A DNA stretch of 64,000 nucleotides from a virus, in the IMG/VR virus record IMGVR_UViG_3300020193_000005, positions 32,001 to 96,000 of that record; one strand, 5' to 3'. A program made the position numbers and the translations under genes. The notes beneath the pieces were generated by a model. The model was not told the origin of the DNA. It made no database searches and was given only the letters and a program-made list of their open reading frames with translations. Positions 1 to 56,875 of this stretch are shown piece after piece (position 1 is the stretch's first letter; every line of letters starts with the position of its first letter).

Positions 1-3000
1 AGAAAACTGAACGGAATGGATCCCTCATCGGACAACAGGGTAGGTAGATCGACCATAGAAAGAGTCGTGTCGAGATCCGCAATCGGGCTCTCTGATCAGG
101 AAGCCGACCTCCTACGCAGAAGATTCGACGGAGAACTCCTTGAAGAGTCGGCCAGGAGAATGAGGATGGACAAAAACGCCGTTCGGAGAATGGAACAGCT
201 CGCTCTCAGAAAGATGCGGGATTTCATCGTGGCGGCGGAAAAATTCGAAAACGAAGCGGATTCCGGCGCGATGCGTCGCGGATCTGGAGGCACGGCGGCA
301 GACGCCGACCGCCCAAAAGGTCGTAGGTTTCCGGGGCGTAGAGCCCGGAAGACACCAGGTTTCACGATTCCCGAAATGGTGGAGTCGCTAAGCGACAGTT
401 ACGGCAGCGACATGTCCAGATCCGACATCATCGCCGCCGCCGTACTGATGCGCATAAGAAGATCGATGACCGACAAAATAGACTATCTACTGGCGAAGGG
501 AGCGAGAAGTAGGAGATTCTCCGCCCTGGCCGACGAAATAACCAAAGCCGACGCCGTCTACAAAGACGGCTCGACCACCGGATCCGCTTTCGTCAAGACC
601 GTTTTCGGCTCCAGCGCTGAATTGAAAAAACTGATCCAGAGAAGAGCGAACAGAATCGACGAGGTAAAAGACGTTGACGGAATAGTGAACGCAAGAACCG
701 CCGTAACCCTCGAGGAGGTCGGCGGCGACGTGAGGGAAGCCGCGCAAAAATTGGGCATTGATCCCAAGGTCGTGGAGAGACGGGCTATCGCTCACTCGAT
801 CATCGCCCAAGCGATAGCGACTCCGGAAACGCTGAAAATAGCGTCGCAGATAGATTCGCAATTCGCTTACGGGATCCTGTCGCCGAAACAAAAAACGCTT
901 ATCAAATTATGGTTGGCCGGTTTCAGCCCCGAGGAAATAGCCGAGACGCTAAACATGACGAGAGCCGACGCATGGAGGGATCTCGGAAGAGCGGTAAGAC
1001 GAATGTCCATGGGCAACCCCGAATGGGTGAGCGAAAAAAACAGAAGAACCATCGCTTCCGTTGATTTGGCCAGCGACGAAGCCGGAGTTTTCTCGGAGTT
1101 GACGCTTTCCGACGGATCGAAACACAGGAACTACCTATCAAAGAGCCCCATCGGTAGCGGAGCAAGCGGAGCAATGGCCAGGGCCGAGGTGGTGAGCGTC
1201 GCCACGGACGCCGGCGAGGAAAGTTACGTGATGGTTCCGGCGAGAGGGGACAGGAATCCTTCATCCTTCTCGCTCTTCCCGTTGAGAACCAGGAACGAGG
1301 ATTTGATTTACGAAGCCGTCGCGGCGGAGGCGAGCGGGATGCTCAATTCCGGTTTGTTCGCGAGAATAGTCACGGACGAATCCGGTGATCAGAAATTGTT
1401 CGCCGGATCCCTCGGAAAGAATTCGATAAAAACGCTATCGGAGATCGGAACCGTCAACGAGAGAACTCCGTTCGTGACGTCTCTCGCTTCGGACGAAAGG
1501 TACGGAAAAGCCCTTCTAGCGAAGTACGACGATCTAAGGAACGTCCTATCCGATACTCCGTTCTCGGAGAATCTGGGCGTGGACGACCGTCGTCTTTCCA
1601 GACTGTCGGAAATCTCGGAAAAAATAAGGAACTCGGCCGCCGTAACGCCGGAAGAAATAGTCGTCATGGATTCCATATTGTCCGAAATCGACGACTCGAG
1701 GCGATCGGCCATACGTCGCCTACCCCACGATTTCGACGAGGAGACGACCGATTCCTTCGTCAACGCCGCCGACGATAGGAGATTTTCGTACGCAGAAAAC
1801 GACGGCGGAAAAACTGTTCCGTACGCCAAAAGAATGCTCGGGTTGGGTTCGCCGAACGCGAGAGAATTTTACCTACGCGTCGGCAAAGACGGAAAACTTT
1901 ACAAGTGGAATCATCCGAACAATCTCGAAAACGACATAGGATCCTGGGCGGATTCCGCGGTCGGGGAGGAATTCATTCCGTCGAGAGACGACGTCAGGGC
2001 GATTGCTTACGACTCGACCGGCGTTACGAGATCCCTCGTTGGCGACGGAGATTCCGGGGCGATGAGTCTTCCCGGAGAGGGAACCGAGTACCGAGAGGAC
2101 GACAACGAAGTCGTCATAATTTCTGACGGTATTTCGGAAGCATCCATCGGCGGGGCGGCGTATTTGGCCATCGGTCAGAATAAACCCCTGTCTTTTGCGT
2201 ACTACAAGAAGGGATCGGGATGGGAAAAAAGATCGGTCGTTCCGAGGGATCTGGTCAGAGGGGTGTACAAAGCCGTGAAACGCGACGACGGATCAACCGT
2301 CTTCGTTTTCCATAAAGCCGACGCCCCGAAAGGATATTTGTTCCTTAGGGCTTTCGATCCGAATAGGAACGAGGCGAGAGAATTCAGGCTGGACAGAATC
2401 GGCGGAATCGGCAACCTGACGTCTCAACCCAAATCCACGAACGCCGCGCCGTCCGGAACTCCGCAGGGCAATACCCCGACGGGTTCGACGCCGCCGAAAC
2501 AAGTTTTCCCGAAACAAATTTTCACTCGTGCCGGCAAAGTCGGACAAGCGACCGTGTGGGTTGATCAACATCCGGTCAGACCGAGCGCCAGACAATCCGC
2601 GTACGAAAAGACGATCGTGGTCGCCGATGCCCCGGTGGCCGGCTATCTCGACGAAGCCTTGAAAGAAATCGGGGAAGGGAGTTTCTTGGAGGGTTATCAG
2701 GGCGACGCTTCGGTGGTGCTTTCGGTCCTGATGGACGCGCTCGGCGACGAAAAACATCCGTTGCACGACAGAGCCAACAAATACATGCTCGCCATGGAAT
2801 CGAAAAAATTAGGCAAACTCCTCGGTAGGACGGCATACAGAAAATCCGGCCTGCAAGGTCCTCCGCTCAGAAGAAGGGCCAAACCGTGGGGTGGCGACCG
2901 GGGAAATACCAAGTTGGCGGATTTCGAGTCGTGGACCGATCCGCAGCAGATGTACGACTGGGCGCGAACCGGGGACTATGTCCTTTTCGACGTGGAAACG

Positions 3001-7041: not shown

Positions 7042-7089
7042 GTCTTACCGAACGAACCGCTATTTTTTGATAAGTTTCCTACAAATGAG

Positions 7090-7111: not shown

Positions 7112-7116
7112 TTGCG

Positions 7117-7691: not shown

Positions 7692-7692
7692 A

Positions 7693-9717
7693 ATGGCGTC
7701 AGACAAACAGGCAACTTTGAAAATCGACGCCGACGGCAACGTCATGAGTTGCGCCAATGGTGCGATGACATCCGAATGCGGATACAAGGCTGGTTCTCTG
7801 GTTTGCGGTAAGTGCGGAGCGATGGCGGTGGAAGTCAAATACGGGATGATGCCGCAGGCCCAGGGATTCGAATGCAAGGCGAGCGGGAAGACGGTCATGG
7901 AGGCGTGCGAAGCTTGCCCGGGCGGTTGCGCCCCGATGGGGATGAAGCAAGAAGAAATGCCCGAAGAAGTTCTCGCCATGTTCAAAAAGAAAAAGCGGAA
8001 GAAAAAGATGGGTGCCGATGCCGAGGAAAAAGCCGCAGTACGGGCTTACGGCGACGTTTACGAAGACGACGAGGAAGAGGAAGAGGAAGAGGAAGAGGAA
8101 GAGATTGAGGACGGCGAAGAGGTCGAATACGAAGACGAGCCAACCCTTGCCGGTATGAGAGCTCCCGCTCCAGAGATGCAAGCCGAAGAGAGCGAGACTC
8201 CCGAGATGCAGGAGGAGGAGGGCGAGGACGAGGATCTCGTCGAGTCTCTCGCAATGGCCAGACCCCCCATGAGGAAGCGCAGAGCACCGATGATGCCTGC
8301 CCGCAGACCGATGAATGAGGAAGACTCGGAAATGATGCCTGCCCGCAGACCGATGAATGAGGAAGACTCGGAAATGATGCCTGCCCGCAGACCGATGGAT
8401 GAGGAAGACTCGGAAATGATGCCGGTCCGCAGACCGATGGATGAGGAAGACTCGGAAATGATGCCGGTCCGCAGACCGATGAATGAGGAAGACTCGGAAA
8501 TGATGCCAGCCGCCCGATCCATGCGGATGCCGGAAGAGGATGAAGAAGAAATGCCCGACAGATCCATGATGAGAAATCGTCGTCTTGCGACCATGGGATT
8601 CAAGGACGGCGAATTCGGAAATACCCCGTTCGTATGCTCAATCGAGCGCAAGGTTTATCCGGGAAACGCAAAAGTATGCGAGAACTGCCCGGGTGGATGC
8701 GTATCGGAGGGCGACATGCCGGCCCTTCTCGAGATCGAAGGAATCGCGGAGGACACTTTCGGGGGCAAGGTCCTGGATTCGGGATACTCCGACAGCGCGG
8801 ACGTCTTCGTGGTCGACATAGAACGCAAGGACGGCAAGCCGGTCGAGGCGTTTTTTGACGGCACCACAGGGGAATGTATGGGATGGCATCTTCTCAACGA
8901 AGAGGTCATGCAAGTCAAGTCCGCTTTTGAGGCTCCGCAAATGGTCAGTTTCTCGGACGCGGCGGAGATAGCCACCAAGAGCATCGCGGGGGACGTCGTC
9001 TCGATAGAAGCCGACCTGTTCGAGGGTTACGACGCCTATGCCGTGGAAATAGAGGGAGTGGACGGCAAGTCCTACGACGTGTTCGTGTCGCTTGACGGAG
9101 AAATACTCGGCTACGACACCTACACCCAGGAAGAGGCATCGGCGATCGAGTCGGAGGCGGCCGAACTCGCCCTCAAGAGGGCTCACGACGAGGTCGAGCG
9201 TAAGGAGATGGCGAGTAACGGAGAGGCCATGGACGACGGGGAAATGCCGATCAAAAACTCGGCGGATCTCAGGAACGCGATCATGTCCTGGCCGCGTTCG
9301 GCCAATAGGGACGCCGCCAAGCTTCATATCATGAGACGAGCGGCGGCGCTCGGTCTCGAGTCTTCGTTGCCGGCGGATTGGGTCGCTCAGGAGCTCGAGC
9401 AAGAGAAGTCCGACGCCAACTTCATGTCCTCTCTTCTTGAGTTCGAGATGATCGAAGCCGAATCCTCGGGAGACGATCCGGAGAGAATGGCCGAGATCTA
9501 TTTCAAGAAGATGTTCAGCGAGGAACGCAGGGGCGAACTCGCTAAGCGAGGAATGGCTCTCCCCGACGGTTCATATCCGATCGAGTCGGAAGAGGATCTA
9601 AAGAACGCGATTCAGGCGTACGGAAGAGCCAAGGACAAGGACAAAGCCAAGGCACATATTATGAAGAGGGCCAAGGCACTCGGCAAGGACGATCTAATTC
9701 CGGACAACTGGCGTTAG
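7693..9717 (+). CDS. Head-associated or scaffold-like protein. Cys-rich N-terminus, acidic tract, 14-aa tandem repeats, PepSY-like region and two C-terminal GSYPI..DL.NAI..GRA domains
   Basis: AAGGAG RBS. Repeated C..CPGGC motifs. Duplicated domain GEAMDDGEMPIKNSADLRNAI / GMALPDGSYPIESEEDLKNAIQAYGRAKDK, a type I recall from actinophage capsid-maturation proteins. Confidence 0.7.
   Translation: MASDKQATLKIDADGNVMSCANGAMTSECGYKAGSLVCGKCGAMAVEVKYGMMPQAQGFECKASGKTVMEACEACPGGCAPMGMKQEEMPEEVLAMFKKKKRKKKMGADAEEKAAVRAYGDVYEDDEEEEEEEEEEEIEDGEEVEYEDEPTLAGMRAPAPEMQAEESETPEMQEEEGEDEDLVESLAMARPPMRKRRAPMMPARRPMNEEDSEMMPARRPMNEEDSEMMPARRPMDEEDSEMMPVRRPMDEEDSEMMPVRRPMNEEDSEMMPAARSMRMPEEDEEEMPDRSMMRNRRLATMGFKDGEFGNTPFVCSIERKVYPGNAKVCENCPGGCVSEGDMPALLEIEGIAEDTFGGKVLDSGYSDSADVFVVDIERKDGKPVEAFFDGTTGECMGWHLLNEEVMQVKSAFEAPQMVSFSDAAEIATKSIAGDVVSIEADLFEGYDAYAVEIEGVDGKSYDVFVSLDGEILGYDTYTQEEASAIESEAAELALKRAHDEVERKEMASNGEAMDDGEMPIKNSADLRNAIMSWPRSANRDAAKLHIMRRAAALGLESSLPADWVAQELEQEKSDANFMSSLLEFEMIEAESSGDDPERMAEIYFKKMFSEERRGELAKRGMALPDGSYPIESEEDLKNAIQAYGRAKDKDKAKAHIMKRAKALGKDDLIPDNWR
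8290..8499 (+). repeat. 42-bp tandem repeat x5 encoding MMP(A/V)RRPM(N/D)EEDSE
   Basis: Unit ATGATGCCTGCCCGCAGACCGATGAATGAGGAAGACTCGGAA, five near-identical copies. Confidence 0.95.
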
Positions 9718-9728
9718 GAGTAGCCGCC

Positions 9729-12700
9729 GTGATCGGCGAAGAAAATAACGACCGCAAGGAGAACCCGAGAAGCAGGGTGTACTTGCCGTTCGGATTCAGG
9801 AAAAAATCCATCCCGAATCCCTATACGGCACGCGACGCCGACCTGGACAGACTCGTCCTCGAAGGGATACCGACCGTCAATCTGGGTCGCGGAATTCCGG
9901 ATCCGACGCCGTTCGGCGCGGATTCGGGGCTGATGCGGAGCCAATCGCGCAGGCGCTTGGCCAGAACTATCGGAAGATTGATTCCGAAAAATCGATCCGA
10001 CTCCGGGGCGATGGCGGACGAAAAAAAGCCCACGACCCCCTCGAGGAACGAAACTCCCTACGGCGGAGATCAGACGATAATCGAGCAAGTGGTCAGCGAG
10101 GCTCGTTTTCAAAAAGATTTGGCCTCCAGGGGGGAATGGAAGGAAATTCACTACGACCACTACGACTGGTGGGCTTACCCGATCGATAGGGGAAGTGCCC
10201 AGTACGGTGATTTCTACAACGTCGCCGGCGAACCCGTAAAGAGATTAAGAAACAACATGGATTTCATAAAGGCGCTCACGGATACGATTTTGGTTCAAAC
10301 CAGGGCGCTCGGATACAACCTTTACGAAAAAACTTGGATGCAGGATCCCGAGTGGGAAAAGGGTCAGGACTGGGGTCTTGCCTATCCCACGAGAATATGG
10401 AAGATGACCAGATCCGCCCAAATTTTCGGTTTGGAGGAGGAATTTGAATCGCTGATAAACATGCAAAAGGTTTTGCAGGAGAGCGGAATCCGATTCAACC
10501 ATCGCAAGTATTGGGAAAGCCCCGGAACGGTGGACGATGTTCCGCCCATCGAGAGTTACGACGAGCCGAAAACATACTTCCGTGACTACTCGTTGGGCGC
10601 GAAACCGCGAACCCCATACGGAGAAGGAGGGGGTTCGTCCCCGTATTATCCGACGGAATACGATGAATGGGAGGCGGGAATAGACACGGAGCCCAGAGTC
10701 GGCGAATTGGAGCCCGACGACTTCGAGTCGGCGGTCGCCGGGGCTTTCGAGTTGGCGGATTTACTCAGGGAAAAATCCGAAATCGGCGACCTGGAATATC
10801 CGTACCACCACATCTCGCCGGATCGGAGGGAAGACATTGCCGATACGATAGATTTCGCGCTCACCCTGATCCCGATCGTCGACGGAGACGGATTCGACAC
10901 GGACAGAAAAGAGACGGCCGACGCCCTGGAAAAATTCGTAGTCGGCGACGATTTGTATCGAGATGACTCCGAGCTGTTGGACGAATTGATTTTACAGTTG
11001 AGAGATTCGACATACGACGGATTCTTTTCGTTCGACGAAGACAGCGGGAGGATGTCCGTTGAGCCGAAAATGAATAGGTTCAATGATCGGGTGACGACTT
11101 TGTACAACGAAGGCAAGACCCGCGAAGAGATCGCCAAGGAGCTCGACCTAAGCGTCCGTCAAGTTGATTACCTCCTAAACAAGCTCTTCGCCGGCGGGTT
11201 GGCGAAATCCCGCCACACACAGCGGGAAAAGACGGAGGAACTCATCGAACGGGTGGTGACCATGCACAACGAGGGGAAACGCACCACGGAAATCGCCGAG
11301 GAGTTGGGGCTCACCAACAACAGGGTGCAAAGATACCAATACATTGCGAGACGACGGGGATTGCTGACGACGCCCCGGAAACGCACTACGGCAGAAACGG
11401 ATGAGTTGATGAACGAGGCCGCGAGGTTGTACAACGAGGGGAAACCCCGGATGGACATAGCGAAGGAAATGAATCTTCCCGGGGAAAAAATTGGCACTCT
11501 TCTGCAACGAGCGAACGAGCGCAAGCTGATTCGCGACTACAACCCTCAAGGATTGGGAAAATTCGGGAAAACCACACTGACCCCCGAAAAAATCTCCGCC
11601 GCCGCCGACGGGTACAGGCAGGGAAAGACGTTCGCGCAGATCGCGGAAGAACTCGCGGTCACGGAAACCGCCGCCCGCAAACTCGTTGTGCAGGCGAGAC
11701 GCTTGGGGCTGGACACGGGCTCCCCTCGCAGGCGAACTCCGTCCCAGATGGAGGAATTGCTTTTGGAGGTGGCGGTCAGATACGAGGAAGGAAAGACATT
11801 CGCCGAAATCGGTCAAGAACTGGACGTTACTCCGTCGGCTATCAGGGATATGGTCGACAGGGCCGTCACGCTCGGTTTGATTCGGAGACGCGAGCGAACG
11901 CGCAGCGACACGGACGAGTTGATGAACCAGGTCATGGCCAAGCGCAAGGAGGGCAAGACCAGACGAGAAATCGCGCAGGAACTGAACGTCCCCGAAAATC
12001 GGGTCGCATACTTGGTCCAGAGGGCCAGGTTGATGAAAGCATCCGAATCGACTTCGACCGACGGATTCGACGGCGAGACGGGGAGAATGTCGAGAGAACC
12101 GGAGAGAGGCGATCTGGTCAGATTCGGTAGAAGCTCAAATAATCGGTACGTAGATGAACCCGGATCGCTCGGCAGGGTGGTGAAGGTCGCCCGTGACGGA
12201 ACCATCTCCGCGGATTTTGGAAATGGTCCGATAAAGCTGATCCCCGGCGAGGACGATTTCCTAGTGATCCCGAGACAAGTCGACGCGCTGTACGAGCTGA
12301 CGGACAACGACGGCAACGTGATGTACCTACCGGTCGAGGACGTGACGTACCCCAAGATCACCCGCGCCATGGAGGAAGCGATGAAAGCCGGGTACAGAGA
12401 AACAGGAATCATCCGAGGAAACATGCGAACATTTTTCGACGAAGCCACGGGAACCTTCAAGACATCCAGAATCGAGTCGAGGATTCTCAACGCGGAGAAC
12501 ATTGCGCCGGAAACGACGGCACCGGTTCCCCCTCAACCCGGATACCCCGAGTTCACTCGAATCGTCGGTACCGACCGAGCGCGAGGCGGGGGCGTCGACT
12601 CCGGCGCGATGGAACTGCCGGACGGAATAGACGAGGAACTTGAGGATTACGTTTACGACGATCCGCTGTTCGGTCCATCCATAAAGCATCCTCTCTTTTT

Positions 12701-15700
12701 TTGGATAGCCCCGATCACCCCGGAAGTGACCGACCTGATAAACGCGTCTTTCGCGCAAAAACGAGCGTCCGCGGATGAAGCTTTGGCAAAAAAGAATTGG
12801 GGCAAATACATATACCTGCACGAACGCCCCTACCGTATCGACGCCTTCGAGGACGTCATGGACGAGATGACGGATCAGGAGTACTGGAGCCGACTCTCGG
12901 ACATATGGGTGGACAGCGAGAACATCGGGGCGCAACCGAGTCGCTGGAGAGAGCTGCTACTAAGCGACCGCGGTTCGCGCGAGTCCTTCATGAACGAGAA
13001 CGAACGCGCGGAACTGGCGAAATTGCCGCAAAAGTTCACCGTATACCGCGGTTATTCGGAAAACGATCAGGAAGAATTCGGGATGTCGTGGAGCACCGAC
13101 GCGGAAGTGGCGGAATGGTTCGCCAGAAGATTCGCCAGAGACGACGAAAAGATCATCATGGAGAGCTTGGAGATCTCCAAGGACGAAGTCTTCGCTTACG
13201 TCACGCGACGTGGCGAGGACGAAATAATACTGGACATACGCAACGTCGTGGAGAGAACGGCGAAGAAACAACAGTTGCCACGGAAACCAAAGACGAGAAT
13301 ACCCTCCAAAAATAGGAACCTGACTCCCCCCGGCGACAGCGGAGCGATGAGTTCGCTAAGCAAGGAACAGATCGACGAAATGACGCAAAGATACAAAGAC
13401 GGAGATTCCGTTCTGGAGTTGGCTAACGATTACTCAGTAACCCAGGGCACCGTCTACTATCACCTGAGAAGAAAAGGCGTCGCCAGAAGGCCGGTCGGAA
13501 GGCGGAAAAAGCCCGGGGGATTTTCTGCCATAAAACGAAGATTGAAGGATTCCCTGGGACAAATCGGACTATTCGCCGCCTTCTCCAACGATCCGCAAAA
13601 AACTCTGAGATCTTCCAACCAAATGAAAACTTACTTGCTTTCCGAACCCGTCCGAACACCGGACGACCTACATCCGGACGAGTTCGCATTGCGTCCGAAT
13701 TTCGTTCGAGCCGCGATAGCCGCCGGATTGGGACTATTCAAGGCATTGAACCATAAAACCTTCAAAGTTCAGGGTCCGATAGCTAGGGAATTCACGGAAC
13801 TAATGGTCGGACCCAAGATGGTCAACGACGCCATCGGAACGACGTACCCGACGCTCCAGGAATTGGGGGAAATATTCGCGGCCAACGCAATCGTCAGGGC
13901 GCGAATCAGGTCTCTTTTCGGAATCAATGATCCGACCGCGCTCGCGTGGGCGATCCAATCGGGAGCTCCACTCCGCGAAGGCGGAGAGAGGATATTCGAC
14001 ATACCCGAATCGCCTCCGTACACAAGAAACCTGGTGGGGGGTGGCTATGTCTATTTCGAGGGAATCGACAATAGAAGACCGTTCGTTCTATCGGTCATGG
14101 CGAATATGCCCGAAGCGGTGAGGAGCAAGTTGTACTGGGATAGTGACAAGATTCCGTGGAGCAAGAGAGACGTGCCCATAACTGTGGAGAAGGGGGAACT
14201 ACCAGGCGGTAGGAAATACGAACGATCGCCCGTGGACGAAGTTTTACCGCTTTTTGTTCCCGGTCACGATACGAGTCGATTGGATTTAATCAAGACGAAT
14301 CACTCTTCGCCGGACGGAGCGAGGCTGGCCCAATACGTGGAAATGGCGAAGGAAGAAATACGACAGTGGGCGGCGGATCACGACGAATGGGCCAGGAGAT
14401 GGGCACAAAGCGTATATCGAATCATGAGCGAAGCTGGTCTGAGCGACGACGAAATAGCGGAAGTGATAAACAGGGACTGGTTGCAAAACATAACTTTCGG
14501 AATCGGAGATGCGGGAGACATATTGCAAAACGCCATGTTTATGGCACTCCTTATGACGAGATCCAAGTTCGCCCCGGTGGTGCATCTAGAAAACGGATTT
14601 GACGATCCGAATTTGGCTCTTCATGAGTTCTTTCACGTCCACCTCGGTCAAGGCTTCACGAGACACGGCGAGTACGTCGCCTTCAGGGGACCCGCGGAAG
14701 TTTACGACTCCTGGTATCCCCACACGCTATTCGCCTTAACCTTCAACAGCGCTTTTTGGCAAAACGTAGTGAAAGAGTCGGGAGGAACGGAAGAGCTCAG
14801 GAAAGAAATGCGAAAAGCCGTCGAAAAAATGCTCGCCCCGGAGTACGACTCGGACGTTCGTCTTCTTTTTGAGCTTTTCCCGGAATATCAGCGCGCCTCG
14901 GCGGAAATCAGAAAGAAACTCAACGAAATGATCATGGCGGAAATAATTGAGGACTTCGAAGACTCCACGGGATTCAGGAGGGTAGCGGGAATGCCCAGAG
15001 CAACCGAAATAATAAATGCTCCTGGTTTCAGGATTCCCAAAAGACTATGGCCGTGGGGTTCCAGCTACGGAGGCAAGGAAAGAATCGCCGACGTCCAGGG
15101 TAAAACATACGCGAAGTTCGAGGAGAGAATTTTCGGGGTTCCGGATCCGACGTCCGGCGACGGCGGGAATACGGGGAAAATGTCGCTGGAAAGAACTCCG
15201 AAATTCGACGGCGGTCACAGTAGTAGGGGAAGGGGAACTCCGTTGGGTGACGGAAAGGACGTCGCAATGAGGGAGGTCGCCGACAGCGCGATCGTCGAGC
15301 TGGTCGGCAACCGAGGAAGTAGCTCGCTCACGACCCTAAGATTTCTCGGACCCTATAGGGCTGGAAGCAGGGTCGTGATGCTTGCGAGGAACGGCGAGTT
15401 ACGTGGCGTGCCGTTGAAGAACGAAACCAGATCGGCGATAGCCAACGCCCAGAGGAACGGAGCGAGATTCGTCGTGGGGGACATGCCCGACGTGGATTCT
15501 CAGTTCGTGGACTTTTTGGAGGAGATCGGAGCCGACTACACGATTTATCACGCCGGAAACTCCCCGAGATTCCGTCCCGGATCGAAAATCCCCGGGACGA
15601 ACGCGGGAACATTGTCCGAGACGAGAGCCGGCGAATCGGATTCTCCGAGTAGGTTGGAGACGATCGGAAGAAACTTGGCCACGGCGGCCGCCGAAGTGGT

Positions 15701-16516: not shown

Positions 16517-16528
16517 GTTGATTATGTC

Positions 16529-16534
16529 TATAAT
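16529..16534 (+). promoter_or_regulatory. Putative -10 element (TATAAT)
   Basis: Consensus TATAAT in an AT-rich intergenic gap upstream of 16587. Confidence 0.45.
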
Positions 16535-16586
16535 TGTTGAAGTAGATCGCCAGAACCTCCCCCGCCAAGCAGAGGAACGACGCTAA

Positions 16587-27344: not shown

Positions 27345-27906
27345 GTTCTTGAACTCAAAAGCCGATCCGCTCGGAGGTCTTTTGCCCCAGGAGGTCGTAA
27401 CCGGCGACGTCATGCGCGGATACGGTCCCAGAAGGGGAAATCTGGAGAGATTGCTTCGCTACTGGAGACCGATCATGAAGAAGCCCGGCGGATTCAGGAG
27501 GTGCAGGGTCATTCTCGCCGATCATCCCGAGCTGTATCCGCTCAACAACATATGCGCCTGGTTGCATCACGAAACGACCGGATTATGGCCGAACGAAGGC
27601 TGTCACCACCCGGGCATGAAAAACTGCAGAAGAAAACTGCGCGGCGTCGTCAACGGATCGATCTGGAGCGACTCGGATTTCAACGACAGGCTCAAGAAAA
27701 TTACGAGGAGAAGGGGAAAGAAGGATCTCAGATCCAGTGGCGGTATCGACGCGGCCCAGACCTACGATCCGTTCGTGCCGGTCATAACGGACGACGACTG
27801 GAATCACGCCTGGGTGGTTTTGGACGACTTCGTAAAGATGGAACCGACCTTCGTCGCGTACGTTTGCTCGGACGATAACTGGGAGATGTTCGATTCGGAT
27901 GTCTGA
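27337..27906 (+). CDS. Conserved phage head-region protein, Cys/His-rich
   Basis: GNLERLLRYW..PGGFRRC..CAWLHHETTGLWP resembles a motif I recall from actinophage head modules. Overlaps both neighbours. Confidence 0.7.
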   Translation: MNEFLNSKADPLGGLLPQEVVTGDVMRGYGPRRGNLERLLRYWRPIMKKPGGFRRCRVILADHPELYPLNNICAWLHHETTGLWPNEGCHHPGMKNCRRKLRGVVNGSIWSDSDFNDRLKKITRRRGKKDLRSSGGIDAAQTYDPFVPVITDDDWNHAWVVLDDFVKMEPTFVAYVCSDDNWEMFDSDV

Positions 27907-40400: not shown

Positions 40401-43400
40401 TCGCAGAGTTGATGAAGAATCTATTGAACGACGGTCTCATGGAGGACGTAAAGAGAAACTTAAGGAATAGGTTCGGCGGTTACGACGCGTCCTTGGGCGG
40501 AGATCCGCGGGTGACGGAAAAATTCAGGTTCGTAGACGCTCAATCGATCATACCTCGCCTGACCAGGGAGCGTTCGGCGAGAAGGCTCAGGAGGGCGACC
40601 GCCTCGGTTTCCGACGACGGAGATTCGGGAAGAATGGGCGGTTTTTCCGTTCCGAGACCCATCCAGTCGGCGACCGGCGGAACCCCCGGGGGAATCGGCT
40701 TTGATAAGAATTACGTGCGATCCGGTGATCTCGCCAACGAGATGCGTCAAATAGACGAAAACAGCAAAAGGTTTTGGGACATGGTCGACGACAAGGTGTC
40801 GTTACGGGTGGCGGCGCGCGGATTGGCTCTACTCGAAGACCTAAAAGATCCTCAAAAACTTAGATCACTCATCGACGACATTTCTTCCCTTGCCCCGACG
40901 ATCAACGGCCAGAGACTGGAGCCCTATTCGAATAACGATGCCATCGCCATAGTGAAGGGGATGAAGGATTTATTCGATAGAAACGAATTGTCGGATATTG
41001 CGAATAATTCGGTTACCTACGATCCGGACAGACCGTGGACGGCGAACGTGATGACCTTCCTGATGGGCAGGCAAACGGGGAAAAATCCGCTACCGAAACA
41101 GTTTTTCGGGGCGCACCCCGACAAGCTCAGAGACTTGAGATTCGCGCCCCTTTATTACGACAACAACATGAGAACCCTGAGACCGTTCATGGAGTCTCTA
41201 GGAATCGGATCCGACGGAGAGATGATCAAATTCGCAATGACGGGAAGACCGATTACCGGGAGTAGAAAGCACACGAGTCCGAAGAACAAGGACAATCAGG
41301 AAGCCAATTACGTGGGAGACGTGATGGCGATGTTCGTAGAGGGTCCGGAATCTTTGTCGAGGTACTCGGGCGGCGACAACGAGAACGATCCGAGAAGAAA
41401 CTCCGACGTTGGCATAGGTCAGGCTTTCGAATACGCGTATCAGGTTTATCTGCGCGATCCGAGAAGAAAAATGAACGGTTCCCCGCTTTTGACGGTGGTC
41501 GGCGATCCCGCTAGAGAATTCGCGGTGAGGAACGATTTCCGTAAACGCATTCACGACCTGTGGAACGAAGCGGAAAGAGTCTACGGCAGAGAGATACAGG
41601 GAAGGCCGGCGCCGATTCAGGACGAAGCGTTGTATTACGCGGCGACGCAGGCGGTCAAATTGGCGGAGACGAATTCGTCAAGATTGGTCACGAGAGAAGA
41701 TTTCTCCGAGGTTATGGACGTCATCCTACGAAACGATATGGGAAGGGGATTTAGCACCTTCGGAGAAATCGCAACGGCTATTTTGGGAGAAAAAGCCGAA
41801 GCTTTCCGCGAACTTTCCGGTGAGGATTTGCGAAAAGCCGTAATCAACTCCATGACCCCCGAGTTGAAGAAGAAATTGACGGACAAAAAAAAGAGAATGA
41901 AAACGGCGGAAGAAATCTTCTTCGCCTCGGCTGTGGCGATCGCCGATTTCCCGTGGGATTCGGACGACGATCATTCAAATAAGAAGAAAGAGGATTGGAT
42001 TGAAGTCGGAAAGAGAATCGGGGAGCTGAACCAAGCCTCGGTTTTTTACGACGAATTTTATAAGTATTTGTCGGAAAACGGAGGGGATAACGCCAAGTAT
42101 TTTGACGCGCGATTCGGGAAGTTCATCACATCCAATCAATTGAGCGTGATAGTCGACGACATAGCGCCAGGATTAACCGAGGGAATCTTCGCCGGAGAAT
42201 CGGGTCGCATGTCGAAGGGCGAAATGATGAGCGAGGAAGAATACAAAGCCATTGTCGCGGCTCGCAATGCCATCGTAGAAAGAGTCAGGCGAAGCAGGTT
42301 TTTGTCCTCCCTTGATTTCGCCCAGGAAAAAGTCGACGAAATCAACGAATTAGCCGAGAAGGCCGACAAGCTGATCGAATGGAAGAGAGCGAGACTCCTG
42401 AGCCTTGTCACGCCGCGCGATGGCGCACTGACGGACGACGACTGGTTCGTCTACGCCGCGATAGGCGGTTTCTATCGACCCTTCCGATCGATATTCCTGC
42501 AAAGATTTGACGAAAAAAGCGCTCCGATCAGCGTGACAACGGCGAGAGATAAGCTTCGCACGTTCATAGCCGAGGCCGGATCGGACGTCGTTAGGGAACT
42601 GTTCGGATGGGTTTCGACCGCGATCAGGGGGGAGGAAGACGAGCCGACCGAGGACGGAGAAACCAAGTTTAGAACGGTCTACGAGCTGACCTCCGACGGC
42701 GGAGTATCGCCGATTTTGGATCGACCCGACCTATTCGAGCGATCCGACGACGCAAGAAACGAAATATCGTACATAGATCCGAAGGCCAAAGAACCGATCA
42801 TGGTGAGAGCCGAAGACGGGAGCCTGATACCGAAACAGAAATCCCCGGCCGAATTGAGGAAAGCCAGCACTCCCATCAAGGTATTGACTCCCTACGGAAA
42901 ACTCAACAAAGCGATACTTGACGGAGCGCTAAGAGCCGGTCTCGTCGCGATGCCGTCGGCGGACGAGGCCGAGAACGAATTACCCCTAGATATAGCACTC
43001 TCCGTCTTCGGGGGAGAATTGCCTCTCATCGAATTGCCGAAATCCTGGCACGAACCGCTGAGCGACGAGGAGCTTGAGCTCACCTTCACGCGAGCCGATT
43101 TGGCCGAAATAAGTAAGCAAGTAAAATTGTTCAACAGAAGATTTGCGCTGGAGATGCTCACAGGGGAAAAGGTTTCCCCGGACGTTAGCCAGAAGGTAGT
43201 CCGCGGAAAAGCGGAATTTATCGCCACGCCGGAACAGTTGAGTCAGAATCAGGCGTTGGAAGCCATGAACCCGCTGAATCAATCGAGCGTAAAGTCCTTC
43301 GTGAATACTCTTTCGCCCGAACAGTTGAAAACGATCGGTGCGTTGTTCGGATCCGATCAATCCTCCGCCATCAAGCTGACGCCGGAAATGTTGCTCGCCG

Positions 43401-46400
43401 CCAACGGCGGGTTGGATGAAGTCAATCTGAGCGTCGCCAAATTAATCGTTGAGGCGGCGAAAAAAGTCGCATTTCTGAGGAGAACGGAAAACGGCGACGA
43501 TTTGATAAACCAAAGAGTTGCGACCATCCTCGGCGACTCATCTTTGGGCGACAACGAAAAAAAGGTGATAACCGCCGTCGGCTCCGGCGACTCGGACGCG
43601 GCGAAAAAAGCCTTCATTGATCTCCCGAGAGAGTCCGCGGCTTCCTTGTCTCGATCGTTGCTCAAACCCATTTACGACCTATCGGCGAAGGATGCTCAGG
43701 GAAATTTGGTCGCCGGGATCGCCGACGTCACGCAGACGGACGCGGAATCGGGTCTGCAGTGGACGAGAAATCTACTGGAACATGTTTTGTCGATGCCCGA
43801 ACCTTTGCAGTTTTTGGAGGAGTTCAGGAAGGGGTTGAAAACGGGTGCGGCGAGACGCGCGGTGATAGAGGTTGGCACCTCCAGAACGGCAGACCCGGGA
43901 GCAGAAACAACGGCTCTCCGAACCGTCAAACTCGACGGAGAGTGGATGAAGCGTTTCGTGATCGGAAAACCCGTCGACGGAAAAGGGTACATAATAATGA
44001 GAGTTCTGGACGGCCAGGACAGAACGAGATTGGACGAAATGCGAGAAAAAATACAAAATTTCTCCGGTTCCTCTAGCGAAGCCGCCGAAATAATCTCGTT
44101 GATGACCGACGAAGAAGTAACGAATTTTCTCATCAACAAGGTTTACCCGGCTTTGGTGGCGAAAGGAATGCGCGACAAATTCTCCTTCGGAATGGCCCAA
44201 GTGACGGCGGAACTTGACGCAAAAATGAGATCCATAGGCAGAAGACTGCGTAAATCCTCTTCCGTTACGGAAATCCTCGACGCGACGGAGGCGGCGATAG
44301 CCGAGGCGTTCGACGGCAGAACCAGGGACATGCTGACCCGGGAGGAACTCGTACAGTACGGGGATCTCGTTGCGTACTTCGCCGCCGGCGGAAAGCAGAT
44401 TCTCCCTCCGGAAAAATACCGATCGGCTCTTGCGGAAATGGCGGCGGAGCGACGAAGAGTGGTGCAAAGAATAAAGGATCGGGCGGACGAGGAAACGAGG
44501 GAGGAAGAGGAACTATACGAGGCGATGATGGATCCGCCCATCGAGCAGTCTCTCCTGGAGGCCTTGCAAAGAGCGAGGGATCCGCAAACCATCGCCGATT
44601 TGGCGGAGCAGGAAGAGCTGTACAGGATCATGGGCGGCGGCAGAATACCCGGATCCGGTTTGAGGCCTTACGACGGAGTAGACGAGAATCTGGGGGAGTC
44701 GACTTTCTGGAAAATGTTCCGCCCCGACCCGGTGACGGACGACGATTCCGAACAGAACCGTTTCGGGGAGGGCGATCCGTTCGGACAATCCGATACCGGA
44801 CGCATGACCATGCCGCTGCCTCCCCCGCCCCCCGACCCGGCGGTCAACATCGGGGATAGGGAGTATTCGAGACTGACCAAGGAGAACGCCGAAAGAACTT
44901 TCGGCGCATGGACATATCAGATGATATTCAGAAACTATTCGACCATATTCGGGGGAAGGGGTACCGGGGCACCGCACATATCTCCGCAATCATATCCGAC
45001 AGCGCCGCTGACCAGAAATCCCTATCATTACGACAGGGCTCGACGCGCGATAGACGCGATGTGGAGATTGACGACGGGCGACGTGCCGGAGGCCGTCCGT
45101 ATACGTCTGGAGAACGACGAGAAAGTTCAACTGGAACAAGCCAAGGAGTGGTTGGACGATTTGATTTGGGTCACCGCGGAATACATGCGCATGGCGGGCA
45201 TTGACGTGCCGGACGACTACGACCCGAAATTGGCCGCGAACAAGAACAATCCGATACAACGCATCTTCTTGGACAACATGGCGGAGGCGACTCTTCTCGC
45301 CCTTTACTTCCCGTTCACTTTCAAGATACCGGTGAGGAGTTCGGGAACGGAAGGCGCCGCCGATTGGGTTCCACAGGACGACCAGGATTTCAATGTGGAA
45401 GGGTTGAATTCGGCGGACAGACCAAATCTTATTTACGCCGCTTATCACTCGATCGTGGCCGGGGACTTCTCGGTGTCGAGCGGCATCGATTCCGGAGGAA
45501 GGGACATCTCCAGGTGGATATTCAACCCGAAACCGCAAAACGAAGGACCCGTTACCCCGCTCGGACCCATAGAAACGGAAATTTACGGATCACGGGATGA
45601 CGGAACCCCGCCGACAGACGTCGTGAGCGACGCCACTTCGGGCGGCGAACAAGACGACGGTTCGCCGTTCCTGGAGGATCCGCTAATCAAAGAACTTACC
45701 GATTTCATCGCCACGATTATCCTGAATCCGTTTGGCGGCAGTGAATACTCGTTCAACGAATGGCTCGATCAGGCTAATCGGTACTCAAAAATTCTGGGCT
45801 CTTCGCACTACGAGAAGAGAGGTAGCGGAAAAGGCCTGATTGATCTCGTGACAGAAGATCGTAGCGTCATCAACGTGGACAAGGTGTTGTCCGAGATAAT
45901 CAAGACCGGCGGCGCAGGCGACGAATTCTCGACGCCGGATTCCCTGATTTCCTTCGGGGATCTATCCATCGCCGATCCGGACTACGGTCCTTCGTTCCCG
46001 GGTGTTTCGGACGAAATCAACGCTCCGTCCATGTTCGACAACATGTCCCCTCAGGAGATATCAAAACAAAGAAAAATCGGAATATCTTCGACCAGCAAGG
46101 CGAGCCAGGCCGCGCGAGCGGGATGGTGGGCTTCGCTTCAGTCCGGAAAACACCCGATGGAGATAGCTTCCTCGGAAAAAACCAGCGACGGAATCAACTG
46201 GCATCCGGACATAGTGGAAGAGGGAATACGCAAACACGCGAAGCAAAACGGCATTGCGTCTTCTGTCGTTGACGCGGCTTTCGACGCCGCCGAAAAGGCA
46301 TACGAAGCGAAAAATTTGAGCACGGCGAAACTCAAATCGATCGCCGCGATAAGAGAAATAGTCGACGCGAACCCGAACAATCTGGCGAAAGTTTTCAACG

Positions 46401-49400
46401 ATTTGGAAGAACTACTGAAACAAAGAGAGTCGGAGAGAAAAGAAACGTCGAATCAATACCAGGAAAGAATAAGAAGACCGATTCTGGCCCACGCCGCGAC
46501 GCTGAAAGCCTACGAAGAAATCCTGAAGGTAAAGCTGAAAGAATTGAACGACTTGATGGCCGGCGATAAGACGTCAAAATCCGAGGCGGTAGACAAATAC
46601 AGAAAAGCAGTCGTAGGCGTGTATGCCGACATCGTCAATATCACCAGAGCGATCAGGAAGATGCATAGAGACTCCGTTGCGTCGAAAAGGGCATTGGATG
46701 CAATCGACGAAGAGATTGAACAAATTCGGGACTACGTCCAAAGAGCCGCGAAGGCCGTAAACGTCTCGGTAAAAGCAATAAATCAAAGAATGCAAATGAT
46801 TCGAGCGATAAAGAACGGAATAGCCGCCAGTGGCACGGACAGCGGAGCGATGTCGATTCCGATGAAGTTCGGGAGCGAAATTCTCTACATTCCGGCGAAT
46901 CCGAGAATCACGCGGGAAAAACCGCAGTCCCTTCTGTCGTCTTTCGAGAAGGCGTTGGTCAGGGCGGCCGCGACCATCGGCGACGGCACCAACGAAATCC
47001 CCGAACAGGCCTCGCTGGTTCTCCCGAATCTGCGAATGATCCGCTCTGGTTTGTTCGAGGAGTTCGTCGGTTTGCCGAATAGAAATTCGGTTCGGTCGAT
47101 AGGAAACTCCCTCAGGGTTGCGCTCAACAAATTCGCCTCGGCGGTTACCGCCGAGGAATTCCTGAGAGAGTCGATGGGCGACAGATTCGTAAATTTCCGC
47201 TCCTTGGGCTTCAATCTTCTCCCGGAAAAGACTAGAAGAATCGCCGAGGACGCCATCCTCGACGGAACCATGGTTTCTTCCGCCAATAACGGCGTCACCG
47301 AAAACGACGCCATAGGCGCGATGATCATGCACGCCGAAGCAACGGAGGCGGTCAGGAACGCCATAATCGGGAGCTCGATACGGGACGCGGCGGAATACCT
47401 AAACGTCTCCCAGGACACGGTGCGAGACGCGATAGAGACGGAAAGCAAGTTGGCCGATTTGACAAGAGACGTGACGAGGGCTCATTCCCTGGCGAGACGT
47501 CTATCCAAGTCGAACGATAGGAGATACACGTCGAACTTCGTGAGACGAAAGTTTTACGACCTAATCCAGGACGGGTTCCCGGAGGAAAGACTTCTGTATC
47601 CCTCAACGTTCTCGAGAAATCAGGCGGTGGCCGCAGCACAAAATGCCTTGAGGGTCAACGAAATTTACGGTCTCACGGAACAGGAACTAATGGCCGCTTC
47701 CGGATCGGACGAAGAAATATCTAGGTTGATTTCCTACCTAAGAACCAGGGAAGCCAAAGCGTCGGCGAGAAAGTTCAACGACTTGCCAGAAAACTGGACG
47801 AGAATGTCGTTCGCCGAAAAGAACTCTTGGTTGTCGTCCGAGGAGGGCCTGCGCGCTTTCGGAAGATTTGGAGTAATGGTTCAGGCACAGTTGATTCAAC
47901 AAGAAATAAACGATTTCGGAATACCCGACGGTCCAGTTTTTGCGATGGGAACGAAGATATTCGAAAAAGAAACGATGATTCCGTCGATGATAAACGAAAG
48001 AGGAGTTAGCAGGCTGTTCGTCGCCGACCCGTTGACATCGTACGATCTGCTTCGTTCGGGGAATAATTCGTACTTGATGCTTGAGGATAGATTGCCGTCG
48101 TTGTACGAGATATCCGACGAGGGTATGGCGAGGTTCCTGAATTCCTCTCCGGAATTGATTTCCGAATTCAGAAACGGAAATCTCATGCTTTCGGAAAAAG
48201 CCGCCGAAAAAATTGCCAAAGCCGTCGGCTTGGATTACGCGGAAATATGGGGTATGCGCAGACCGCAGATAGCTACCAACGAGGGGAATTTCTACTGGCT
48301 GGCGAGCAACTGGGCGCTCGTGGGTCCGACGATATCGGCGATCAACGACGGAACGCCGACCAATTCCATATCCGATTTGGTGAACGACGGGGGGAGAAAG
48401 ATACCGCAGAAAGTAAGCGAGTTGATTTCCTCCGGGGTGGTCGACGCTTTCTACGACGCGGTCAATCCGAACGGAATAACCCAGGCCGACGCCGACGGGT
48501 ACATCGCGTCGCTGGGCAAAAAGAAACGAAAGGAAGTAATATCGATTCTGGCTTCCGCTGGTTACGGGGAATCCGAAATCGTGGCGAGCACCGGTTTCAA
48601 CCCGAACACGGTTAGAAACGTTCTCAGGGAGACGAGAATGTCGGGCATGGCTCCCGCGGCCGTCGGTTCACGAGAGTGGACGATGAGCAACGCTCGGGCC
48701 ATCAGGGCGGACTCCAAGAACGGCGTATCCAAGCGGGAGTTGATGAGAAAGTACGGAATAGGCGCCAGGAGCCTGAACTCGATTCTTTCCGAGGGGTCTT
48801 CGGTCGCGTACAGGTCGGCTTACCGTTCGGATTCCGGAGCGATGGCGAGCAGAAGACTGAACGACGAGGCGAAGGTCGCAAGACGCGAGGCGACGGATCA
48901 AGACAAAATCGTCGTCGGCGAGGAGATGGGAATAACCAAGGACGTTATGGGGAACGAAATACGGGACATACCCGGATTCCACCCGATAGTCGCGCGCGTG
49001 GCGAATCCTTTCGAGGCGGAAAACGGAGCCGGGCTCAACGCTGACGGAACCAATAAGGTCGAGTCGCCGGAAAATACCGTGATTGAAAACATCGTTATGA
49101 TGTGGAAGTCAATTACCGATCTCTTCGTGAACTACGCCCTATCCGGGGGAAGAATAAGACTTCCCTCCGACAAATTCCGTTACGTCGCCGGATTCGGAGA
49201 AGACGTCCTGGTGGATCTGGTCTGGGCGGACAAAGTATCCAACATGGGTAGGGAGACGAACTCCTACGGAACGACGTACGCTAAAACTCAGCTTGACGCG
49301 ATGCGGGGGGAATTCAGTTTCGCCATCAAAACTTTGCTGAAAAAAGTGATGGAAGAAAAAGAACTTCGGGGGGGAATCGACGGTCTTGCCAACGCGATCG

Positions 49401-52400
49401 CCGGTCAGCTCGGTCTCGTCCCGAGTTTGTTCGGATACATGTTCGCCATGCACGAAAATTTGGACGAGGTAATACAAGATTCGACTCCGGGTAGATCGCG
49501 CACCCCGTTCAAGCCGTTCGGCACGCAATACAAACGAGCCCTCAAGGCGGTGCTCGCGGCCGACGACCTCTCTCAAACAATTAACGGGGTTCGTAAATCC
49601 GAGGACGCAATCAGCCCGCTCTTGCGCGATCCGAGACAGATGATGAAGTACATTCCGGAGGATCTGAAGCGACGTTACACGGAGACCATTACAACGACCG
49701 ACTCCGAACCGGCACAGGTTGAGGTGTCGGGATTCAACGGACAAGAAGACGTGCGGGTTCTCGCCTACGTGGCATCCACAATCGCCGACCTCGCAAGTGG
49801 CGACGTTGATCGATACTTCGATGAGACGTCCCCTGGTGACACGACGATGTATTTCAACAGTCCGGAAGGAAAATTCATCGCCCTGATGGTGGCGCTGGGC
49901 AACATCAGACCGACATTTAGGTATCTACCGTACGCAAACACCCTCGGTATGTACTACAGCGGAAACGAAAACGACGAAGTGCTTGACGGTTCGGGTTTCG
50001 TGCGTGAGGTAATTTCGGAGATAGAACAAAACTACGCCGCGTGGGCGGAGCGATTCATTGATCGGTTGACCCCGATGGTGAACGACGGGGATCAAAATAT
50101 GCGACTTTACGACGTGTCAAATTTCCGTGATCCGCTTACGGATGGATCGAATTGGGGAAAGAGAGTTTTCCTCGACGGAACAAATTTCAACAACAGCATC
50201 AAAGATGCGCTATTCCTGCAAGGGCAAATCGACGACTCCGATCAGCCGACTTCCATGGTGTTGCAACTGTCGATGACTGGAGACGGGAGCGTCGTGCCGA
50301 GTTTGTCGGTCCTGGATTCGATCATTGCGCCGATGGAGGAGGCTTATTTTTTCGCTCCAGATATCAGGGACGGCATACCGGTCTCGAATTCGGGATTTTC
50401 GTTCGTCATGCCGTCGCCGATGCGGGAAACAATCAGGAGAGCGAGGGGCGACATAACCGCCGAGGGCATATTGGCGGCCGGAGAAATGGGCATAAGCATC
50501 CCTTCGTCCGAGATCGTCGAAGAGAAGTTGAGCAATTTCATTACGCCCGAAAATTACGGGGGAGACACCGAATATTATCCGGGCATAGAAAATATGATCC
50601 GTTGGATGGTGGAACGAGGACTCGCCTCGGAGATAGTAAGGGGTCTCGATTCTCAATCGCCCGGCAGTAAGTACTCAGTCGATCCCGCCGTATTGGAAGA
50701 AATAGACATTTTGACGAGAAGCGAACCCGACTTGTTTCCGAGCGGCGGCCGCTCCGCCCCCATAGATTACACGCTCTCCCCGGATTTGGCGGCTTTGGAA
50801 AAGCTAGTGAAAGCGCCGAACGTATCCACGTCGGTTCCGCTATTCAAGAGGCAGGATTACTTCCACCTAAGGGACGCCATCCCCTATCTCGTATCGCTAC
50901 TCGAGGTGATGAAACAGCGGAATACGGCGACGTTGCCGCCTTCGTACGATCTCATGCCGATCCTGAACGCAGAAACAGGCGACGTCATAGGTATGTCCCC
51001 CGGCAACATTGTTGATTCGGGTATCGATCCGACGGTATCCCTGAACCCGAATTACTGGCCGAGGGCGACGAGATTTTCACAGATGATCATAGAAGCCGTA
51101 CAGCAATCCGAAAAAATCGCCGGCTTTCCCGCGGAGCTAAAACAAATAGTCAACGAAATGACCCCGAGGGAGTTTGCCCTTCTCGATTGGATCGTTTCCA
51201 TGAATCAGTCGTTACAACCCATTTTTGAGTTGTGGGACACGAGCACGCTTGTGGCATTCGAACAAGAAGGATCGCATCCTTCGTTCAACACTAGGCGCAC
51301 GATGGCGGGCACAACCGAGTATCCGTCCAGCATCTTCTCGACTGGCGAGAGGGCGTCCGGACTGCCGCTCGTAGTTCCGCCGAAAAACGTCAGAGGTCAG
51401 CAATTGACGGCGTTCGATGGCCAGGATCAGGTGCTGGATCAGGTTCCTTTCGGTTCGGAAAGAATTGAGTTCGGCGGAACGCAACCCAACAGCGTCGTCG
51501 ACGATCAGGTCTACGCCTACGCAATGGATCAAATATTCAAAAAACTCGCGTCCTACGGATCCAAGTCGTCGGAAACTTTGGTAAACGAAGTGATTTTCAA
51601 CTCTCCGGTAATCCAAACGCTAAAAAACAAAACGCAGATAGACGACGACGACCTGAGAACGCTCCTTGACGACGGCAAGGAATCCGGGGAAGTGGTGGCG
51701 ATGATTTTGTCCGACCTTTTGGCCGAGGGGATCATGCGGGCGGCCGTTAGAGAATCCGGAGCGAATATAAGGTACGCTCCGTTCTCGAGCGGAGACGAAT
51801 CAATCAGGGTCGACGGCGTTCGGGGAGAAAATCTCCGCAAGTTTTTGGACGCGGTCCGACCCAGGCGAGATTTTTACGGATTTTGGTCGATGTACGGACC
51901 CGACGTCGTTTATTCCCTTCCCAACAACGACGAGCCTTATCTTCCGATTTGGGAAGACGACCGCAAACTGACGGAGTTTTTCGGCGTTCGACCTTACGCA
52001 CCGGAAATTTTCTTCCCATACGGATCAACGGAAAAACTGGAGAACGACGCCTCCCTGAAGGGCAGTCTCGTAGGAACCAACGAATTGTTCGACGCTCTAC
52101 AAAGAAGTCCGTCCCGCTGGTGGTGGGATAGACAGGCGCCGCTAATCGGATCAACGGCAGACGATGGAAACGTTACGACCCCGGAAGCGATCGTCGACGA
52201 TGCCGAAAGAACGGCGTCCCAGTACGTATTGAACATGTCCCCGGACGAGCTGATCGAATACCTTCTCTCCGTCCAAGAGAGCGCATCGGGAAGAAGAACG
52301 GAAGAATCGGGAGTCGCAGTTAGACCGCCGAATTTACCGTCGATTTTGCGACGAGCTTTCGGCGACATGAACGATTTGACTTTCGAAAACATTCCGTATA

Positions 52401-56875: not shown

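Follow-up and report, generated by a model that had tools for sequence, protein, structure and literature searches.

What purpose is served by a short peptide that recurs again and again, with its sequence nearly fixed, in the giant open reading frames (ORFs) of a phage? The 64,000-nucleotide stretch analysed here (the window) comprises bases 32001-96000 of a 109,136-bp IMG/VR virus contig, IMGVR_UViG_3300020193_000005, which is rated 73% complete and from which a genome of ~150 kb is estimated (109 kb scaled by 73% completeness). The contig belongs to an uncultured contractile-tailed phage. Ten ORFs, all on the plus strand, occupy window positions 1-56875 and are followed by the capsid gene, and six of the ten are giant ORFs carrying pentapeptides of the type DSGAM, which we call tags. 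The tags are enriched, lie at the borders of modules, are replaced by other tags at the same joints of homologous proteins in related phages, and stand in the context of head genes. Comparison of these genes leads us to the interpretation that the pentapeptides are probably proteolytic processing tags joining the modules of capsid-cargo polyproteins.

The original prediction listed 18 exact DSGAM sites and 14 variants in the window, and both lists are borne out: the exact copies all lie in frame in large plus-strand ORFs at the predicted positions, and so do the variants, which were found in frame when ..G.M pentapeptides were listed from the translations. The count of six giant ORFs is right for the window, but the first of them, ORF1, runs beyond it, starting 4,211 nucleotides (nt) earlier, encoding 3,750 amino acids (aa) and containing five further sites. 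With the upstream part of ORF1 included, the whole block contains 21 DSGAM copies and 37 tag sites; DSGAM is its commonest pentamer, and M comes after every DSGA. In the 18,362 aa encoded by the ORFs of the window, DSGAM was seen 18 times versus 0.02 expected from composition (mean 0.01 and maximum 1 in 500 shuffles), and the broader pattern [DEN][ST]G.M was seen 29 times versus 1.03 +/- 0.98 in the shuffles (maximum 5). Codons vary freely, as had been claimed: over the 21 exact copies Ser is encoded by TCC (12), TCG (5), AGC (3) and TCT (1), and Gly by each of its four codons. Because the codons differ between copies, selection acts on the peptide and not on the DNA. If numbered for a cut after the Met, the tag has a small residue at P3, a free P2 and a fixed P1; the residue after the Met is S, A, G, T or R, and tandem tags are spaced 7-26 aa apart.

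The tags were said to sit in linkers and never inside a recognisable domain, and the module borders agree with this. No Pfam or PHROG domain spans a tag site. In ORF3, the match to phrog_4776 (residues 969-1179) fills the module of residues 962-1202 almost exactly, and in ORF1 the match to a sigma-factor PHROG ends at residue 1489, with a tag at 1491. An AlphaFold2 model of ORF10 residues 5360-6466, made with a 16-row alignment, placed all four of its tags in segments (79-95, 248-272, 416-433 and 712-750) where the predicted local distance difference test (pLDDT) score is below 50, a range that holds 19.6% of the residues of the model. The last two modules in this model take a NUDIX fold and a zeta-toxin-like kinase fold.

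A search with the capsid protein found 320 related viral contigs at 66-78% identity, the figure of more than 300 being a count by contig and metagenome numbers alone. Equivalent motifs had been expected in related genomes; DSGAM itself occurs in 0 of the 80 flanks compared, and each flank has its own over-represented peptide. The last 3,200 residues of ORF10 are collinear with giant ORFs of five related loci (L005, L006, L007, L010 and L016) at 33-41% identity, and the ORF10 sites at residues 3786, 5443, 5615, 5786 and 6101 align with PTASM, [DE]AGM, NAGM, AEAGM and PVG[SK]M, respectively. When ORF10 was aligned with 15 database homologues, Met was invariant at two sites (16/16) and P3 was always Gly or Ala, with flanks that were gap-rich and only ~10-20% identical. 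The pattern of a lineage's own tag at the joint was also found in 24 giant homologues. Whole portal-to-capsid blocks of relatives were then compared for their top pentamer, which proved in each case to be the relative's own tag: ISGRM in G003 (13 copies), EAGM, mostly as [TAP]EAGM, in G001 (18 copies), ITGAM and ITGSM in G004 (7 and 3 copies) and LSSG in G006 (9 copies). In L054, GLTGA is followed by Leu or Ile where other lineages have Met. Since the tag at corresponding joints differs from lineage to lineage, the tag and its reader appear to co-evolve. Shuffling of the cargo modules themselves between lineages is evident. Conserved joints of homologous proteins, a tag that changes by lineage and linkers of low pLDDT all uphold the proposal that the motifs are peptide-level tags between modules.

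The tags are also found outside the giant ORFs. None had been noticed in the capsid gene or downstream of it, and the capsid protein indeed lacks DSGAM, but it has a conserved G-A-N-M, and a tape-measure-like ORF beyond the window has NSGAM twice. This tag near the N-terminus of the tape measure follows the lineage, being LAGRMG and LNGRMG in G003 and LTGAM in G004. All sites of a genome thus change together between lineages, including those in the unlinked tape measure, and therefore one trans-acting reader is the simplest account.

The gene order around the block is that of a head module: large terminase, portal protein fused to a Phage_Mu_F domain (portal-MuF), ORF1 headed by a prohead protease of the S78 family, the other ORFs and the capsid gene, which places the S78 protease after the portal gene and before that of the major capsid protein. 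The interval from portal-MuF to capsid contains ~61 kb of ORFs, in the place that is held only by the protease and the scaffold in a typical HK97-like phage. Farther upstream, on the opposite strand, are genes for the sheath, baseplate J and the tape-measure-like protein. The nearest cultured phages are actinophage myoviruses, namely Gordonia phages DalanDe and GMA6 and Brevibacterium phage Cantare, with capsids ~47% identical. Judged by their homologues, the untagged ORF2 and ORF7 look like core head genes with cargo inserted between them: ORF2 is 53% identical to the ORF after the protease ORF in G006, ORF7 has 30% identity over 711 aa to a 678-aa ORF of G006, and ORFs of ~680 aa sit upstream of the capsid gene in many related loci.

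A 34-aa box is present near the N-terminus of five polyproteins (ORF1, ORF3, ORF5, ORF8 and ORF10), its copies being 59-83% identical in self-BLAST matches spanning the box. BLAST against longer stretches of relatives found it in four ORFs of G001 and two of G003; in the 10-kb flanks of 80 loci, the strict box pattern matched this phage's own copy only. A tag directly follows the box in ORF3, ORF5 and one G003 ORF, and a Lys-[SAD] dipeptide lies 8-20 residues upstream of it. By analogy with the capsid-targeting sequences of T4, the box is a candidate capsid-targeting or docking propeptide, and a box directly before a tag resembles a removable targeting propeptide.

In the mechanism we propose, the box would take the chains of these five polyproteins into the procapsid, a phage-encoded protease would cut them at the tags, and the products would exit with the DNA at infection. 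Cutting at all 37 sites is predicted to give ~47 products with a median length near 300 aa, and the recognisable ones would be many helix-turn-helix (HTH) or sigma-like DNA binders, a WYL protein, an exonuclease-like module, a NUDIX protein and a zeta-like kinase. The original prediction was of roughly 35-40 products made by one protease; the comparison between phages partly supports its cleavage, and the number predicted for the full block is ~47.

Which enzyme would read the tags? ORF1 matches Peptidase_S78 (PF04586) at residues 32-177 with 44.8 bits (cut-off 21) and phrog_80, head maturation protease, with E=8e-26. This N-terminal region lies upstream of the window and continues with DUF6321 and DUF4314; it also holds one copy of the box. 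S78 is the only protease that hidden Markov model (HMM) libraries recognise, and the N-terminus of ORF1, which bears it, matched nothing in a search of PDB. The His in VVWGH and the Ser in EWSIGY, the putative catalytic pair of S78, do not vary among seven lineages. Identity of the S78 core is 91% to that of G001, whose tag is EAGM, and 71-81% to those of the ISGRM, ITGAM and LSSG lineages, a comparison that leaves aside the tag status of the recurrent STRS peptide of G007. An [IL]S[IV]K[AS] motif after the S78 domain is invariant in all seven lineages. The capsid protein, whose likely start is the ATG at 57264, is 47% identical to that of DalanDe and has an N-terminal delta-like region of ~120 aa, which keeps E-Q-K-S, E-I-K-G and E-F-K-A in all lineages; its G-A-N-M and E-F-K-[AS] are two candidate maturation sites. 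In HK97, the delta domain of gp5 is removed at Lys|Ser. DalanDe has EIKS four times in the capsid delta region (capsid 19995-21365), and EIKS and ELKS directly after the protease domain of gp27 (14943-19844), and these are likely to be Lys-directed S78 sites. The conserved S78 core, the Lys sites that follow the domain or lie in the capsid delta region, and the EIKS set of DalanDe together suggest that S78 keeps a conserved Lys-directed, HK97-like specificity and that the tags are read by a separate enzyme.

Candidates for such an enzyme are the modules with an HExxH motif: HEFFH in ORF3, nearly invariant among homologues, HEPKH in ORF4 and HEFGH in ORF5. The ORF4-type module recurs in G001, G003 and G004, and the four lineages share invariant H, E, H, F, G and R as well as an I-D ~56 residues downstream; these modules are otherwise very divergent (17-27% identity). 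Relatives of the HExxH modules are scarce, phmmer over 1.84 billion representatives returning three to four and a word-based search one. The protease-headed polyprotein of G006, the LSSG lineage (joined-locus coordinates 623-9463), has MHETIHWT at residue 1006, which in our view resembles the ArdC-type MPTase signature. A fixed hydrophobic residue (Met, Leu or Ile) is what a zincin would be expected to accept in its P1' pocket. A match of one module profile (A2) to RNA 2'-phosphotransferase (E=0.014) was not significant and was set aside.

The original prediction had pointed to head proteases such as gp21 of T4 and gp175 of phiKZ. The head context it presumed is there, with S78 at the start of ORF1 and portal-MuF adjoining, but S78 as the reader is put in doubt by the conserved core, the Lys sites and the HExxH alternative. 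If S78 did read the tags, it would cut in the procapsid after the Met of [small]-x-M (P3-P2-P1), as the T4 and phiKZ enzymes cut after Glu. In favour of this, HMM recognises no protease other than S78, which is physically joined to the cargo, the capsid G-A-N-M lies near the expected maturation border in all lineages, SGRM occurs inside the protease proteins of G003 and G004 themselves, and the tag rule with its small P1' mirrors the A-x-E|S of SPN3US gp245 (PMC10052503). However, tags occur in the tape measure too, Met gives way to Leu or Ile in one lineage, and both the near-constant core and the Lys sites argue for another specificity. We therefore consider this particular form of cleavage, which is one way in which the favoured interpretation could hold, rather unlikely. 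Considering the enzyme by itself, we lean slightly towards the HExxH modules as zincin-like, fast-evolving, cargo-borne putative peptidases that would cut on the N-terminal side of the fixed hydrophobic residue, give S78 cutting after Met a lower but appreciable chance, and leave the rest to another enzyme. More tentative is a fuller picture built on the same comparisons, in which each lineage has a private, fast co-evolving code of protease and tag, separate from the Lys-directed capsid protease; a zinc protease within the cargo would cut head cargo and tape measure, possibly only after ejection, so that unprocessed chains of ~2 MDa would cut themselves into ~47 effectors in the cell.

Several points weigh against processing tags on capsid cargo. 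Cleavage, packaging, ejection or delivery, and the cutting enzyme are all things that we infer. The tape measure is not a head protein, and a purely intracapsid protease leaves its tags unexplained. An S78 core conserved at 71-91% is hard to square with tags as different as DSGAM, EAGM and LSSG, and the HExxH modules match no Pfam family (nothing relevant at E up to 5), gave no usable ESM Atlas match and no Atlas cluster, and as profiles (A2 and A3) searched against PDB matched no peptidase and no solved structure. Four of the ORFs, and stretches as long as 1,657 aa, are free of tags. In a second AlphaFold2 model (ORF3 residues 31-1225) all six tags are in segments of pLDDT below 50, but this adds little weight because 49% of the residues are below that value.

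The tags could also be uncut, serving as a conserved linker or as a peptide that docks, for instance, to the inside of the capsid, to a chaperone or to a modifying enzyme, or reflecting a junction convention left by the shuffling of modules. A flexible linker would suit a binding peptide as well, modules do move between lineages, and cleavage is itself something we infer. However, the concerted change of all sites calls for one trans-acting reader, the differing codons exclude DNA-level homogenisation or a recombination hotspot, and tandem sites and a tag directly after the N-terminal box resemble the architecture of protease propeptides; we regard uncut tags as improbable. A repeat or recombination junction acting at the DNA level was rejected outright, as codons vary and both Ser codon families are used. 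If the cutting enzyme came from the host, as with the head proteins of staphylococcal phage 80alpha, which are cut by the host L27 protease Prp, and each lineage's tag were adapted to it, then cutting of the tape measure outside the head and lineage-specific tags beside a conserved S78 would both be accounted for. Housekeeping proteases, however, rarely shift their pentapeptide specificity between related hosts, and a difference in tag is already found between phages whose S78 is 91% and whose capsids are 78% identical, which makes a host enzyme very unlikely. Finally, all tags here end in ATG and S, A or T often follows, as it does in natural N-termini, so that the tag Met codons might be internal translation starts and the giant ORFs might be read as nested genes. 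This idea was rejected and is hardly credible: a Shine-Dalgarno (SD)-like sequence precedes 6 of 37 tag ATGs and 62 of 462 other internal ATGs, which is no enrichment; GTG or TTG begins 29 of 53 mechanically called ORFs and none of the 37 tags; an SD cannot be encoded by tags of the PTASM type; Met is replaced by Leu or Ile in one lineage; and the frames are open for up to 6,466 codons.

The original prediction regarded the scale of the system as unknown from tailed phages, and this did not hold. Iyer et al. (2017; PMC5512222) described the polyvalent proteins of phages and conjugative elements, drew the analogy to RNA-virus polyproteins, proposed that embedded assemblin-like or zincin peptidases release the domains, and found a zincin-like MPTase hub domain in ~36% of them. 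Like those, the proteins studied here are giant multi-domain proteins encoded beside portal/MuF genes, predicted to travel with the DNA, and combine unrelated effector-type domains (Sigma70_r4/HTH, WYL and exonuclease-like PHROG matches, which lie inside ORF1 modules, DUF4314, NUDIX and Zeta_toxin). Polyvalent proteins, however, have 2-15 domains and no defined cut-site code, whereas here a pentapeptide marks 37 joints over 61 kb, changes with the lineage and occurs in the tape measure as well; their assemblin-like peptidase is C-terminal, and here it is N-terminal in the first chain.

The internal proteins IPI-III and Alt of T4 (cut by gp21) and the substrates of phiKZ gp175 and SPN3US gp245 are packaged and ejected, with N-terminal propeptides cut at a short P3-x-P1 motif that has Ser at P1'; packaging and cutting of a comparable kind are predicted here. 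At 14 sites in 9 proteins of SPN3US, gp245 removes N-terminal propeptides from packaged proteins, its cut following A-x-E and leaving Ser at P1' (PMC10052503). Unlike the present case, these are proteases of the T4 gp21 group acting on separate gene products that lose one propeptide each, whereas the chains here have up to 14 modules. The Glu at P1 of the T4 and phiKZ type ([LI]-x-E or [SAG]-x-E) was not seen, the fixed residue here being Met (Leu or Ile in one lineage) and never Glu, and we found no report of lineage-private tags for the T4, phiKZ or SPN3US systems. HK97 gp4 shares with ORF1 the S78 family (by HMM), the fold of the capsid it accompanies, and conserved Lys-[SA] sites, some following the protease domain and others within the capsid delta region, but gp4 stands alone with ~225 aa, whereas the protease here heads a 3,750-aa chain 61 kb from the capsid gene. 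In DalanDe (Bendigovirus), the nearest cultured relative, gp27 is annotated as a 'capsid maturation protease' and is over-long, with 1,633 aa, in a myovirus head module with ~16 kb from portal to capsid; it differs in having its protease domain near the C-terminal part and no repeated x-G-x-M tag, its repeated peptide being EIKS.

Our literature search found nothing specific on this clade or on a Met-type tag. Compared with the literature found, a discrete tag marking the joints, its lineage-private form at conserved positions and its presence in the tape measure are apparently new. If the tags are cut sites, roughly 61 kb of coding capacity in this clade goes to proteins that arrive ready-made along with the DNA, and processing of polyvalent proteins in the manner of viral polyproteins, as put forward by Iyer et al., becomes directly testable, with predicted termini that are exact. 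The tags also give a simple rule for splitting giant ORFs that defy annotation into functional units, and the turnover of lineage-specific tags, with the joints unchanged, offers a natural experiment on how a protease and its substrate evolve together, from which sets of orthogonal protease-site pairs could come.

Table 1. Features of the tagged block and its surroundings; positions are those of the window unless marked as genome positions, which refer to the whole contig.
Feature	Position	Strand	Description
Tape-measure-like ORF	genome 6289-11619	minus	1,776 aa; hydrophobic helices after residue 130; NSGAM at residues 95 and 105
Portal protein	genome 25427-27715		fused to C-terminal Phage_Mu_F domain (residues 670-758); directly upstream of ORF1
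Six giant tagged ORFs	1-7041 (5'-open in window), 9729-16271, 16587-24170, 24175-27045, 29985-36107, 37475-56875	plus
Exact DSGAM	259, 2050, 4642, 5341, 5650, 6862, 9999, 12597, 13335, 22293, 22359, 24015, 39116, 46838, 48830, 53801, 54830, 55775	plus
34-aa box	9816..9917 (ORF3), 24271-24372 (ORF5), 30645-30746 (ORF8), 37841-37942 (ORF10); also in ORF1 upstream of window	plus	NP.TARDADLDRLVLEGIP..N.GRG.PDPTPFG
ORF1	1..7041; start at genome 27789 (window -4211)	plus	3,750-aa polyprotein headed by S78 prohead protease
ORF1 tags in window	259, 1162, 2050, 4642, 5341, 5650, 6331, 6862	plus
ORF2	7693..9717	plus	674 aa, no tag; acidic, Met/Pro-rich repeat protein, core head-cluster gene
ORF3	9729..16271	plus	2,180 aa; N-terminal box, tags, HTH-rich modules, phrog_4776 module, HEFFH module
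ORF3 tags	9921, 9999, 11040, 12075, 12597, 13335, 15168	plus
ORF4	16587..24170	plus	2,527 aa; 1,575-aa module with HEPKH (nt 18579-18593)
ORF4 tags	17553, 22293, 22359, 24015	plus
ORF5	24175..27045	plus	956 aa; N-terminal box, tag directly after it, 835-aa module with HEFGH (nt 25603-25617)
ORF5 tags	24373, 24523	plus
ORF7	27899..29992	plus	697 aa, no tag; core gene just upstream of capsid gene in most relatives
ORF8	29985..36107	plus	2,040 aa; box at residues 221-254, one tag at 31308, 1,594-aa module
ORF10	37475..56875	plus	6,466 aa; box at residues 123-156; 10 tags
ORF10 tags	39116, 40622, 42197, 44792, 46838, 48830, 53801, 54317, 54830, 55775	plus
ORF10 C-terminal modules	NUDIX 55133-55510; zeta-toxin-like P-loop kinase 56084-56626	plus	Pfam and predicted fold
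Major capsid protein	57204..58637	plus	HK97 fold; PF05065 E=6e-43, 147.6 bits
Capsid G-A-N-M	57615..57626	plus	14-protein alignment; in every lineage (ATM in DalanDe); 11 residues after conserved E-F-K-[AS]

Several further properties of the ORFs in Table 1 were noted. ORF2 contains five tandem 14-aa repeats (RRPM-NEEDSEMMP; ARRPMNEEDSEMMP type) at 8293-8515 and may be a scaffold-like head protein; it is very acidic, with Cys-rich ends and a weak PepSY match. Inside the long HExxH module of ORF4, (G)GTPSPG is repeated seven times in a row (19812-19934). ORF8 has no Pfam or PHROG match. A weak DUF3721 match was found both in the untagged ORF9 (36534-37397), together with phrog_17747 and phrog_14910, and at the N-terminus of ORF10 (37475-37700). 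From the AlphaFold2 model, the helical module between the ORF10 tags at residues 5443 and 5615 (about residues 5455-5607, ~53837-54295) may be a Clp N-terminal-like domain. Homologues of ORF10 carry a Clp_N (PF02861) match. Just past the capsid gene, the minus strand has two adjoining genes at 59791-62747, one for a C-5 cytosine DNA methylase (E=1e-59) and the other for a helicase of the SNF2 family (E=1.5e-32).

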